Counted from the first letter of the stretch, positions 20,608-23,349 are shown. The stretch: DNA of 64,000 nucleotides from Bacilli bacterium (GCA_045123185.1 JBGVIL010000020.1:19715-83714); one strand, 5' to 3'. Notes: generated by a model not told the origin, from the sequence alone. Numbers and translations: made by a program.

Positions 20608-21105
20608 TTACTTGCTCATCGCGAGTTTTATAATTTTCTTAATTTGATAATTCGAATAATTACCTACATAAACATATTTAGGATTACCATATTTTAAATT
20701 AATCTTTAAATATTTATTAAACCAGTGTTTATAATAAACTTTTGTCTGTTTTTCTTCTTCTGTAAGTTTAACAATTTCAATATCTTTTATTTCAGAAATA
20801 AATACATTCTGATTCCACTTTACATCAATGTTATTTGCTGCTTTTTTCCAGCTTGTAGTGAATGGAAAATAATGAAAATATATACTATTTTTATTATTAA
20901 TTGATATATATCTTATCATTAAACTGCACCCAATTGGAAGCATGATTCCTACTGCAAACAAGATCACAAGATACCAATATTTAAGTATCCATTCTAAATC
21001 ATGTAGTTTACCAAAAACAAAAATTAAAATTGAGCATATCATTAATGGTCCACAAATTACAGACAATAACAATACATCATAAAATGCAATTATTTTTTTT
21101 CTCAT
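20608..21105 (-). CDS. putative immunity protein of orphan cassette 2 (membrane protein)
   Basis: 165 aa with 2-3 N-terminal TM helices. An AGGAGG SD lies upstream, and the start is 11 nt after the stop of the toxin fragment. Confidence 0.55.
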   Translation of the reverse strand: MRKKIIAFYDVLLLSVICGPLMICSILIFVFGKLHDLEWILKYWYLVILFAVGIMLPIGCSLMIRYISINNKNSIYFHYFPFTTSWKKAANNIDVKWNQNVFISEIKDIEIVKLTEEEKQTKVYYKHWFNKYLKINLKYGNPKYVYVGNYSNYQIKKIIKLAMSK

Positions 21106-21116
21106 AATTTATCCTC

Positions 21117-21923
21117 CTATTTTGCAATACTATCAATTAACTCATCCAACCTATTACTTGCAAAGATATCAACAAATACACACACAACTCCACCTACAAC
21201 AAATCCCACTACAGTACCAACACCTGGACAAATAGCAGAACCTAACGCAGTTGCTCCGTACAAAATACCTTTGTTTAGATAAATTAAACCTACACCTTTA
21301 GCAGCAGTTAATGTAGCTCCTAATACGAATCCACCAGGACTTACTCCTCTTTGGACACTATCATAAATATCTAAACCAACACCTAATGCAACACCAAATA
21401 TATCTGATTTACCTAAACCCCAACTAAATTGATTAAATGCAAGAACGCCATCCTTCATTGAAGCACCAAGCATAGTCATATCATCAGAAAAAGCATGTAA
21501 ATTTTTACTAAAATAACTTATGTTATTGTAAATTGTTGATGCAGAAGAATATAATCCATGAAGTGTTGAACCTGCGTCTAATTTGTTATCAATCCAACCT
21601 AGATTTAATCCACCTTTAGATGTAGAATTAGGATTTCTATTTCCGGTAAATGAACTACCAGCACCAATAGAACTTACTAATTCACCACCAACACTAGTAC
21701 TACCAATAGCACTTGAGTTATTATATGAAAAGCTAATTGGATTGTTATTCGCATAACTATATAAGTTAAGTCCATTAATGCTTGATGGGTTTAAACTAGA
21801 TACATCTGCTGGTTGGATGAATCTTCCTAGTTCAGGGCTATAATAGCGAGATGTTACAAGAAAGAGGTTAGTTTCTACATTATAATCTTGATTATCCTTG
21901 TGGATAATTATTTCATATAATGA
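21117..21923 (-). CDS. orphan RHS C-terminal fragment 2 (core-end motif plus toxin tip; no start codon for the full frame)
   Basis: The open frame continues upstream of the 120-aa tracked ORF. It reads ...NVETNLFLVTSRYYSPELGRFIQPADVSSLNPSSINGLNLYSYANNNP..., homologous to the core end of the main RHS protein. A Gly-rich hydrophobic tip follows. Confidence 0.7.
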   Translation of the reverse strand, partial: SLYEIIIHKDNQDYNVETNLFLVTSRYYSPELGRFIQPADVSSLNPSSINGLNLYSYANNNPISFSYNNSSAIGSTSVGGELVSSIGAGSSFTGNRNPNSTSKGGLNLGWIDNKLDAGSTLHGLYSSASTIYNNISYFSKNLHAFSDDMTMLGASMKDGVLAFNQFSWGLGKSDIFGVALGVGLDIYDSVQRGVSPGGFVLGATLTAAKGVGLIYLNKGILYGATALGSAICPGVGTVVGFVVGGVVCVFVDIFASNRLDELIDSIAK

Positions 21924-21951
21924 TTATACCACATTTTTTATATTAATACAA
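21923..21951 (-). promoter_or_regulatory. extended -10 promoter in front of orphan cassette 2
   Basis: On the minus strand: TTGTAT, a 17-nt spacer, then TGTGGTATAAT. AT-rich context, so a chance match is possible. Confidence 0.4.
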
Positions 21952-22026
21952 AATTAATCAACTAAAAACAAAAATATTAAATTTAAATATCTAACTCAAA
22001 AGTGTTGCAAATTTGCTTATTTTAGA

Positions 22027-22098
22027 GGCAGAATAAGGAAAATGCAACAAGTAGCATTTTCGACTGTTGCGACAACTGGGATACCCAGGTTTCGCTCT
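22027..22098 (+). repeat. X repeat, degenerate copy B (same orientation as copy A)
   Basis: CAGAATAAGGAAAATGC...GCATTTTCGACTGTTGCGACAACTGGGATACCCAGGTTTCGC. It shares ATTTTCG...AACTGGGATACCCAG with the reverse complement of copy C. Confidence 0.55.
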
Positions 22099-22170
22099 TG
22101 TCCACTAAATGTAAGAAAGGATGAAACTGAGATAATCAGCTCCACCCCTAATGTTAAAAGTGATGTTTGT

Positions 22171-22593
22171 TTATTTTTTTAAAGTTTCTTTTATTATTTT
22201 AATTATTTTTTTAGTGTTACTAACTTTATATTCCCACCCTTTAAGAGTATTATATCCAGTAAATTTATACAATTTATCCAAAGTTGAGATATAAATAATA
22301 TTTTGTTTTAATGTTTGATCTTCAGTATAAATATCAATAATATCCTTTATATTTAATTCTGTTTTTTTGATTTGTATAATAATCAACTTATCTTTATTAA
22401 TAATTATTTTACTTGAAAAACTAATATATAGTGCAAATAAGCAAAACATTACAACAAATGTAATAAATATAATAGCTCCTATAATTAGATTATCTACTAA
22501 AAAACATACACAATACCAAAGTGCTATAGTAAATAGACATTCAATTATTGACAATAACTTAAACCCATTGGAAACTAAACTAATTTTTTTCAT
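22171..22593 (-). CDS. putative immunity protein of orphan cassette 1 (membrane protein)
   Basis: 140 aa with two N-terminal TM helices. An AAGGTGG SD lies upstream, and the start is 9 nt after the toxin fragment's stop. Confidence 0.55.
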   Translation of the reverse strand: MKKISLVSNGFKLLSIIECLFTIALWYCVCFLVDNLIIGAIIFITFVVMFCLFALYISFSSKIIINKDKLIIIQIKKTELNIKDIIDIYTEDQTLKQNIIYISTLDKLYKFTGYNTLKGWEYKVSNTKKIIKIIKETLKK

Positions 22594-22602
22594 AATGCCA
22601 CC

Positions 22603-23349
22603 TTAATCAAACAAACTTTTCCATAAATCATATACAAAATCTCTTACATGGTCAATTACCGATTTTCCATTTACATCTAATTCCATAAGCCAATTTACAC
22701 CTAAACCTACTAAATAACCAACTGCTGTACCTATTGCAGTACCAACTATAGGAATTGGGATGAATGATCCTACAAATCCACCTAGTTTTGCTAATCCAAT
22801 TGTTGTTAATGAATAAACTGCAGTATTTACAACAGCATTAGATATAATTCTATCAGTACTATATCCTCTGTTATAATCATTAAATGCCCCTTCACCTACT
22901 TGAATTGCGACTGTTATAGCGGCCATTATATTTCCAAATTTATTAAATGCTTTAACATCATCCGCAAAACTATTGATTGCTGCCGTTCTTTGCTTATTCC
23001 AAATTCCAATACCAATATTATTCGGTCTTACAGCATTAACAACACTAAAATATCCGCCTATATATGCTCCATTTAACATCAATTGTAGAGCCGTAGATGT
23101 GCCTTCAAATAAATTACTAAAAGTAGCCCATTCTGGATAATGACCAGTGTTGTCTTTATACATGATCGGATTATTTTTGCAGTAACAATATAAATTAAGA
23201 CCATTTACTGATTCTGGATCTAGATATTCTACATCATCTGGACTTATAAATCGACATAATTCTGGTGAATAATACCTTGAGGATAACCAAAATAACGAAG
23301 TTTCGACAGGGCTATTACGAGTATCCCCATAAAAGATTAACCTATAAAC
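22603..23349 (-). CDS. orphan RHS C-terminal fragment 1 (core-end motif plus toxin tip; frame open upstream of the tracked ATG)
   Basis: The frame upstream of the 186-aa ORF reads ...GDTRNSPVETSLFWLSSRYYSPELCRFISPDDVEYLDPESVNGLNLYCYCKNNPIMYKDNTGH. This parallels VETSLFWVSSRYYSPELCRWISPDSIEYLDPESINGLNLYAYCGNDPVNKYDPTGH in the main protein. Confidence 0.75.
   Translation of the reverse strand, partial: VYRLIFYGDTRNSPVETSLFWLSSRYYSPELCRFISPDDVEYLDPESVNGLNLYCYCKNNPIMYKDNTGHYPEWATFSNLFEGTSTALQLMLNGAYIGGYFSVVNAVRPNNIGIGIWNKQRTAAINSFADDVKAFNKFGNIMAAITVAIQVGEGAFNDYNRGYSTDRIISNAVVNTAVYSLTTIGLAKLGGFVGSFIPIPIVGTAIGTAVGYLVGLGVNWLMELDVNGKSVIDHVRDFVYDLWKSLFD

Follow-up and report, generated by a model that had tools for sequence, protein, structure and literature searches.

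Orphan rhs-CT/rhsI modules and C-terminal displacement in rhs genes have been described by Jackson et al. (2009; PMC2935791), Poole et al. (2011; PMC3150448), and Koskiniemi et al. (2014; PMC3967940). The authors of the displacement model knew of no integrase accompanying Rhs (PMC2935791), and the acquisition and banking of toxin tips in polymorphic toxin genes have so far been explained only by homologous recombination. TndX, a large serine recombinase, acts at a central GA dinucleotide and targets DNA encoding a conserved domain (Fic) (PMC4430133); according to the title of a work cited in that paper, it performs both integration and excision alone. Here we describe a locus in a 64,000-nucleotide (nt) stretch of a Bacilli bacterium (GCA_045123185.1, JBGVIL010000020.1:19715-83714; hereafter, the window), in which a full-length rhs gene, two start-less rhs C-terminal fragments (orphans 1 and 2), their immunity genes (imm1 and imm2), and the gene for a TndX-like large serine recombinase all lie on the minus strand. 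The orphans are filed as members of the Rhs orphan class and the recombinase as a TndX-like large serine recombinase. Nothing relevant emerged from full-text literature searches that combined serine recombinases with Rhs or polymorphic toxins. The source is a metagenome-assembled genome (MAG; G000) of 2.49 Mb in 228 contigs, with a completeness of 82% and a contamination of 5%; relatives measure 1.4 to 1.7 Mb, and G000 may be a strain mixture.

We favor, with a probability of roughly 0.7, the reading that cassettes consisting of a toxin tip, an immunity gene, cargo, and a recombinase gene integrate in frame at the GA of a Glu codon in the rhs core-end, each insertion pushing the previous tip downstream and thereby building a stack. 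This reading is built from the anatomy of the locus, homology, recurrent junctions, breakpoints between genomes, and the symmetry of the recombination sites. The features concerned, from the rhs gene downstream, are listed below with lengths in amino acids (aa).

28591..34704, minus strand: full-length rhs gene, 2037 aa; core-end at aa 1756-1851, DPTGH motif at aa 1847-1851
29285..29346, minus strand: core/tip junction, an attL-type (attB-like) site, ...AAAGGATATTGTTATGAT GTT GA AAC...
~28594-29151, minus strand: tip of the full-length rhs gene (expressed), aa 1852-2037
28192..28578, minus strand: candidate immunity gene of the main tip, 128 aa, soluble, 12 nt past the rhs stop
25767..28028, minus strand: cargo of the newest cassette (a HIT-domain protein, a PNP_UDP_1 phosphorylase, and two genes without a family match)
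25023..25766, minus strand: recombinase leader (R1 repeats, X1 element) and a 53-aa open reading frame (ORF) conserved with the recombinase
23337..24953, minus strand: large serine recombinase, intact, 538 aa; stop codon at 23337-23339
23303..23336, minus strand: P arm and crossover of the attR-type site, TCTTTTATGGGGATACTCGTAATAGCCCT GTC GA
22603..23349, minus strand: orphan 1, start-less frame, 248 aa; core-end from 23307, DNTGH at aa 66-70
22606-23139, minus strand: tip of orphan 1, 178 aa, predicted all-helical, with a hydrophobic Gly-rich hairpin
22171..22593, minus strand: imm1, 140 aa, with an N-terminal hydrophobic stretch of ~56 aa; Shine-Dalgarno (SD) sequence AAGGTGG
21924..22170, minus strand: noncoding block X2; terminator at 22149-22117, extended -10 element TGGTATAAT at 21935-21925
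21874..21899, minus strand: degenerate type-2 P arm and crossover before orphan 2, AAGGATAATCAAGATTATAAT GTA GA
21117..21923, minus strand: orphan 2, start-less frame, 268 aa; core-end from 21878, DPxGH absent
20608..21105, minus strand: imm2, 165 aa, with two transmembrane (TM) segments; SD AGGAGG
20325..20607, minus strand: terminator (20581-20548) and leader remnant (an inverted X1 copy and one R1 copy)

A preliminary description of the window, made from the sequence alone, had proposed that both orphans open with the RHS core-end. When their extended frames were searched, both gave significant matches to TIGR03696 (NCBIfam, RHS repeat-associated core; cut-off, 32.5 bits), at 53 bits for orphan 1 (E 3.6e-14, profile positions 26-76) and 41.8 bits for orphan 2 (E 1.1e-10, profile positions 22-70). 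Core-end sites number only three in the window (29319, 23307, and 21878), all co-oriented, which speaks against chance matches. Neither orphan tip is significantly similar to the main tip, and the two match each other only weakly (30% over 92 aa, E 0.029 in a six-sequence database), in agreement with the earlier account of the tips as unrelated. Tight coupling to the immunity genes behind strong SD sequences was likewise found as described, with gaps of 9 nt for imm1 (AAGGTGG) and 11 nt for imm2 (AGGAGG) beside the 12 nt of the main pair, and so was the fate of the cleavage motif, which is DPTGH in the main gene, the variant DNTGH in orphan 1, and missing from orphan 2. Related tips without the DPxGH motif are joined to core sequence in contig C107 and at loci L055 and L139.

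The tips and immunity genes are inherited together. The orphan-1 tip and imm1 are 98.8 and 98.5% identical, respectively, to their counterparts in L130 and 80.8 and 72.7% identical to those in L131-L138; the orphan-2 tip and imm2 are 96 and 99.3% identical (aa) to those in L046, L062, and L098, where the frame of orphan 2 is intact and the ratio of nonsynonymous to synonymous substitution rates (dN/dS) is 0.16-0.26 (30 synonymous and 17 nonsynonymous changes against L062). At the nucleotide level (window 20608-21878), imm2 is 99.6-99.8% identical to these three loci and the adjoining orphan-2 tip 94-97.5%, the immunity gene being the more conserved. Among 1.84 billion representatives searched, the orphan-1 tip has 183 relatives at E <= 0.001, some forming the C terminus of 1851-2106-aa proteins with RHS repeats and many others being short, orphan-sized ORFs; the full-length contexts found for orphan 2 have only the core-end class in common with it. 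Intact frames, the dN/dS of orphan 2, the occurrence of the orphan-1 tip on full-length RHS proteins, and co-inheritance make the orphans functional-looking. Together with core-end homology, the last two of these uphold the earlier assignment to orphan rhs-CT/immunity modules downstream of a full-length rhs gene. The remark that such orphans are less documented in Firmicutes-like genomes of this kind was fair, and no paper linking Rhs orphans to a serine recombinase was found. The preliminary description, accurate in each of its observations, was incomplete rather than wrong in its interpretation: it saw a static set of orphans, linked neither to the recombinase nor to the recombinase-type arm before orphan 2.

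Searches of the tips and immunity proteins against Pfam and NCBIfam gave nothing significant except the core-end, and a PDB profile search matched the core-end only, to the C-terminal plug region of Rhs/TccC structures. AlphaFold models the orphan-1 tip as a bundle of five helices (pLDDT 83.8) that includes a hydrophobic, Gly-rich helical hairpin; Foldseek found no match to this model at E < 0.4, so that the idea of a pore-former is drawn from composition. Glycine-zipper matches among relatives of this tip are all below threshold. The tip of orphan 2 (~202 aa) is also Gly-rich, with a hydrophobic hairpin at its C terminus. imm1 and imm2 each encode a small two-TM protein, hydrophobic over TM-length segments near the N terminus. 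We regard the tips as probable helical toxins acting on membranes, and their immunity proteins as probably embedded in the membrane.

The absence of an in-frame start, another claim of the preliminary description, was confirmed, as ATG, GTG, and TTG are all absent between the upstream stop and the Val-Glu-Thr (VET) codons at the start of the core-end in both frames. It is unlikely that the orphans, rather than being silent archives, are toxin-antitoxin-like modules expressed independently from internal starts. The Salmonella orphan provides a precedent (PMC7043789), and public gene calls include a 186-aa ORF from an internal ATG (P0154 and others). However, the first in-frame ATGs, at 23163 (orphan 1) and 21479 (orphan 2), are internal to the fragments and, unlike the immunity genes, have no SD. 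Expression from internal starts would in any case be compatible with cassette integration, as a side activity.

The recombinase contains Resolvase, Recombinase, Zn-ribbon, and DUF4368 domains (the Zn ribbon at 23.7 bits, just below its cut-off of 25.3) and is 36.9% identical to annotated TndX over its full length. Two other classes of element were rejected: an SCC (Ccr) element, because the CcrA/B/C models score 50-100 bits against cut-offs of 700-900, and an integron or rAID cluster, because the recombinase is of the serine type.

Orphan 1 begins 29 nt past the recombinase stop, with RHS homology from 23307, and this adjacency recurs widely. Sampling one genome per species yielded 57 loci in gut MAGs (labelled Bacilli, Mollicutes, Erysipelotrichaceae, Haloplasmataceae, Anaeroplasmataceae, Oscillospiraceae, and others). 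In 36 related loci from gut Bacilli and Clostridia MAGs, the 3' end of the recombinase gene is complete and followed by at least 200 nt; an rhs core-end starts +32 to +97 nt after the recombinase stop in 26 of them, against a background of 0.13 hits per kb, and the recombinases of these loci range from 39 to 99% identity. L050 and L051 fit too, with a one-gene insertion separating the recombinase stop from the P arm; the inserted gene of L051 (11623-12639) encodes 339 aa. Scanning metagenomes with the 24-nt P arm returned 32 stretches with 33 occurrences, 31 of them followed directly by a core-end; in about half the recombinase is gone and an arm of ~21 nt is kept. Stacks in other genomes reach six junctions (L067), and a 410-kb contig (L024/L047) carries two recombinases (recA and recB) in series, in the order core, tip, immunity gene, cargo, recA, tip, immunity gene, restriction-modification genes, recB, tip, immunity gene.

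Comparison between genomes indicates what is inherited as a unit. The window is ~98% identical to L021, L022, and L023 from ~25380 to 23318 and ~75% identical from 23317 on. A unit of recombinase, tip, and immunity gene was ruled out because in L021 the recombinase is 99% identical while the tip downstream of it is only 40% identical. Orphan 2, imm2, and the trailing noncoding DNA (21879-20325) are 94-96% identical to L046 and L062. This match begins at the first VET base, the arm upstream of it being type 1 in L062 and type 2 in the window and L046, and in both loci it runs on into a 58%-type recombinase. The co-inherited unit is therefore tip, immunity gene, (cargo), recombinase, and arm, and the tip after the recombinase belongs to the target. 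The DNA at 20325..20607 is homologous to the leader preceding the 58%-type recombinase in L046, L052, and L062; no such recombinase is present here. The arm before orphan 2 matches, at 21 of 24 positions, the type-2 consensus found after 53%-type recombinases in L047, L056, L057, and L058, from which we infer that orphan 2 was once preceded by a recombinase of that type; L071 has the same recombinase-less arrangement. In L080 (8230-8500) and L106 (~649), the P arm and GTCGA are joined to non-rhs DNA, the break lying right there. These joints look like off-target recombination or recombinase-mediated deletion. The partner DNA in L080 is the 3' part of an ABC-F-like ATPase gene.

An improbable account of these breakpoints is that the ~2.1-kb recombinase module, made up of leader, 53-aa ORF, recombinase, and P arm, is an insertion element in its own right that targets core-end DNA and was inserted, without tips, among pre-existing orphans. 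Only this module is ~98% identical between genera, with tips and cargo differing on both sides, and a left boundary near 25383 is common to three loci. Insertion at a VET site nevertheless predicts two flanking sites, and the left edge of the module has no core-end or P-arm-like site, the window holding three sites only. The minimal loci L066, L076, L077, and L139 also speak against a tip-free module, as they consist of core, tip, immunity gene, recombinase, and tip with nothing between. Furthermore, in L046 and L062 a tip of the orphan-2 type keeps company with its immunity gene, leader, and recombinase, all at 96% identity, and the P arm covaries with the start of the upstream tip.

The exchange point can be narrowed to a few bases. 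At the core/tip junction, the V codon (29319-29317) is followed by the proposed crossover GA (29316-29315), with GGATAT at -18..-13 and GTATCC at +17..+22; at the attR-type site, GGATAC lies at 23326-23321 (-22..-17) and the GA at 23304-23303. The V codon is GTC at 41 of 52 recombinase-side junctions versus 3 of 15 core-side junctions (Fisher p 5.5e-5), one tip class bears ATA, GTA, or GTC as its V codon depending on the upstream context, and the third base of the Thr codon is variable among identical arms. These patterns bracket the exchange to the GA(A/G) of the Glu codon. Reconstructed attP sites (an arm plus the tip start of its own cassette) match their own inverted complement at 14-20 of 30 positions, where the null expectation is 8.7 +/- 2.6 matches (P(>=17) = 0.002), and the dyad symmetry is centered on the GA of the Glu codon. 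The symmetric motifs at -22..-17 and +17..+22 are subtype specific, being GGATAC/GTATCC in type 1 and GGTTAT/GTAACC in type 3. Core-side arms carry a related GGNTAY (Gly-Tyr codons) 4 nt nearer the center in 15 of 15 cases. In serine integrases, attB and attP differ in half-site spacing; the core-side offset may recall this difference, by analogy, and is offered only as a lead. All junctions are co-oriented and share one codon phase, so that recombination of the core junction with either orphan junction would fuse in frame.

Classical C-terminal displacement, in which RecA-dependent exchange within the core-end moves the tips and the recombinase is a neighbor or passenger, is very unlikely to explain such junctions. 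It is the published model for enterobacterial rhs genes (PMC2935791) and for orphan activation in Salmonella (PMC3967940), and an orphan at a second rhs locus of G000 (C107/C109), which retains at least 43 aa of core and is joined to a truncated recombinase, resembles a homology-driven or illegitimate event. Yet the DNA homology between the main gene and orphan 1 begins exactly at the VET codons, and breakpoints fall there instead of being spread over the homology. Homologous recombination is also a poor alternative here because the core-ends of the main gene and orphan 1 are only 75% identical, with a longest exact run of 18 nt; the longest run shared by the main gene and orphan 2 is 7 nt. 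Neither the subtype-specific noncoding P arms with dyad symmetry nor the adjacency of recombinase and core-end in 26 of 36 loci is explained by homologous exchange.

Seventeen of 41 related genomes encode homologues of the recombinase, with 99% identity in another genus and 93% in a third; copies 93-99% identical are found in at least three genera of the family, with different flanks, which marks the recombinase as horizontally mobile. A resident, domesticated switch that exchanges tips by deletion in a fixed array, with no horizontal movement of cassettes, would fit the co-oriented, in-phase junctions (any deletion fuses in frame), the known excision of gene-reconstituting large serine recombinase elements, and a sub-threshold match of the recombinase to XisF (NCBIfam), but it is quite improbable given the near-identical recombinases beside different tips and chromosomal neighbors in different genera, the many copies that are pseudogenes or remnants, and the fact that stacks cannot be built by deletion alone.

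Under cassette integration, we predict the following. A cassette would extend from the VET codons of its own tip through the immunity gene, variable cargo, and TndX-like recombinase gene to the ~25-nt P arm. Its circular form would carry an attP composed of the P arm, GTC, GA, and its own tip (predicted circle junction, ...ATAGCCCTGTC GA AACTTCGTTATTTTGGGTATCC...), and the recombinase would catalyze exchange at the Glu-codon GA with the same codons of a resident rhs gene. Upon integration, the new tip would join the Rhs shell, and the old tip, left with neither start codon nor shell, would come to lie directly behind the recombinase gene; the new core/tip junction would again be target-like, allowing further cassettes to stack. 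The window would then hold three layers. The newest, intact from 29316 to 23305, would comprise the main tip, immunity gene, cargo, leader, 53-aa ORF, recombinase, and arm; the middle layer, orphan 1, imm1, and X2 followed by the type-2 arm, its type-2 recombinase having been lost; and the oldest, orphan 2, imm2, the terminator, and the leader remnant. The orphans would be archived tips, untranslated, each kept with an expressed immunity gene: imm1 is probably cotranscribed with the recombinase, since no terminator lies between the recombinase and orphan 1, and imm2 is probably transcribed from the TGGTATAAT promoter of X2. Both immunity proteins would still protect against neighbors firing the corresponding toxins. 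Switching would be possible if two junctions recombined, excising the intervening cassettes as a circle and re-fusing an orphan to the shell in frame; for orphan 1, the predicted deletion junction is ...TGTTATGATGTT GA AACTTCGTTATTTTGGTTATCC....

Several observations weigh against cassette integration. Excised circles, empty sites, and alternative same-strain arrangements were all absent from the assemblies (the MAG and the metagenome P-arm scan), as were the predicted attP and attB junctions from the MAG assembly. In same-genus relatives the flanking genes are only ~65% identical (aa), too distant for an empty-site comparison. Orphan 2 has no recombinase with it, and no type-2 recombinase was found in the 82%-complete MAG. 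The block of ~98% identity between genomes comprises the leader, 53-aa ORF, recombinase, and P arm only, with upstream cargo and tips differing, and transfer of a whole cassette is seen for the orphan-2-type cassette but not for the newest, whose cargo and tip DNA recurs in ten relatives as short conserved blocks with no whole second copy. Cargo turnover in the newest cassette is indicated by left boundaries of the shared block at 25383 or at 25604-25682. The adjacent core-end is absent in 10 of the 36 loci, most of these having recombinases of <= 48% identity. Canonical serine integrases need attB and attP sites that differ from each other, and they excise only with a directionality factor; the right half-sites at the junctions here are alike. 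Finally, the orphan tip has no Pfam, PDB-sequence, or fold match, and toxicity and protection are putative.

A more far-reaching version of cassette integration is a "toxin-tip integron" run by TndX-like serine recombinases, in which stacking would be unlimited, excision would need no directionality factor, and any archived tip could be re-fused in frame. In this version, the core/tip junction would act as attB and the recombinase/orphan junction as attP, roles that follow from the retention of the Rhs-encoded right half-site at every junction. We put it forward tentatively, at somewhat less than even odds. If correct, the toxin that is fired and the set of immunities could be switched reversibly and heritably, the 2009 displacement model would gain the integrase and the circular intermediate that it lacked, and the toxin/immunity pair would also serve the mobile element as a social addiction module.

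The cargo between the immunity gene and the recombinase differs by cassette and is often defence-like. HIT and PNP_UDP_1 genes are found here, AbiH in L131 (4760-7473), and a restriction-modification pair with HAD and GNAT genes in L024 (2803-4584, 8080-12677). The best matches in plasmid and phage collections are <= 40% identical, and IMG/VR gave one match, which is not phage-like; no carrier replicon was found. The L139 record (4900-7758) is classed as viral in IMG/VR but contains an rhs cassette (tip, immunity gene, recombinase, tip) adjoining high-GC DNA; it is probably a chimera. The record of L102 starts with a Nextera adapter (1-40). The second rhs locus of G000 (C107/C109) consists of a tip, an immunity gene, a recombinase remnant, and another tip. 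In C107 (2179 nt) and C109 (16060-16953), the frameshifted remnant (aa 5-141, 64% identical) is fused to an rhs core fragment, and in C107 the same core sequence is repeated at both contig ends, the next tip being the one that retains at least 43 aa of core.

Among the noncoding elements, X2 is found again after immunity genes in L024, L028, L071, L100, and L130, and the terminator/promoter block 3' of the main-tip immunity gene recurs in relatives. X1 (~110 nt) lies upstream of the recombinase at 25251-25371, with an inverted copy after imm2 at 20442-20549. An inverted-repeat transposon bounded by these copies was ruled out, as they are only 71% identical and the breakpoints between genomes lie elsewhere. 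R1, a ~75-nt repeat, has three tandem copies in the leader (25432-25641) and one after imm2 (~20392). Rfam gave no match in the window from 19000 to 36000 at E <= 1, with X1, X2, and R1 included. A Mur-ligase-like gene (455/460 aa) and a gene of 171-196 aa lie directly upstream of both full-length rhs genes of G000 (window 34685-36593; C145 36553-38440), and Mur-ligase-like homologues are present on rhs-bearing contigs of G002 and G011 as well. The peptide SVDWKKI occurs near the C-terminal ends of both the main tip (~28620-28645) and its immunity protein (~28225-28250), with 18 of 24 nt identical, which may be chance or the trace of an old rearrangement.

A recombinase cutting within core-end codons would give tip acquisition and banking a defined mechanism, with predictable sites, crossover dinucleotide, and products. 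If true, it would explain the orphan stacks of uncultured gut Bacilli and Clostridia, and toxin, immunity, and defence cargo would spread jointly between genera. It would also offer a family of serine recombinases with a readable, protein-coding target site.

The locus shares with rhs-CT/rhsI orphans the start-less tips beginning at the core-end, an immunity gene for each, and stacking downstream of a full-length rhs gene. The displacement model likewise has old tips displaced by new ones and postulates a circular intermediate. Unlike in the rhs-CT/rhsI cases, which are attributed to homologous recombination, a serine recombinase gene and an arm are found here at the displacement junction, and the repeats have diverged too far for homologous exchange to be efficient. 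Tn5397/TndX and Tn4451/TnpX of Clostridia have the same recombinase architecture, including DUF4368, and TndX shares the central GA dinucleotide and a target encoding a conserved domain. However, those elements are resistance or conjugative transposons of 6-21 kb that disrupt their target, whereas here a replacement 3' end would restore the target in frame with a new toxin. The staphylococcal cassette chromosome (SCC) uses large serine recombinases (Ccr), integrates at the 3' end of rlmH, and stacks in tandem at one site; in contrast to what is proposed for the present locus, the function of the target gene is unchanged there and no toxin tip is exchanged. In the rAID clusters of Bacteroidales (10.1101/2025.05.03.651265) and in integrons, as here, a recombinase accompanies co-oriented arrays (of orphan immunity genes in rAID) with conserved intergenic motifs and a cassette logic. 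Both use tyrosine recombinases, though, and rAID arrays are defence-only and unattached to a toxin gene. Integron cassettes are promoterless ORFs with attC, in contrast to the in-frame gene ends seen here. In the gene-reconstituting elements skin/SpoIVCA, SPbeta/SprA, and fdxN/XisF, excision by a large serine recombinase restores an in-frame gene, as it would here. Each of these restores one fixed gene, whereas at the present locus each excision would expose a different toxin domain.

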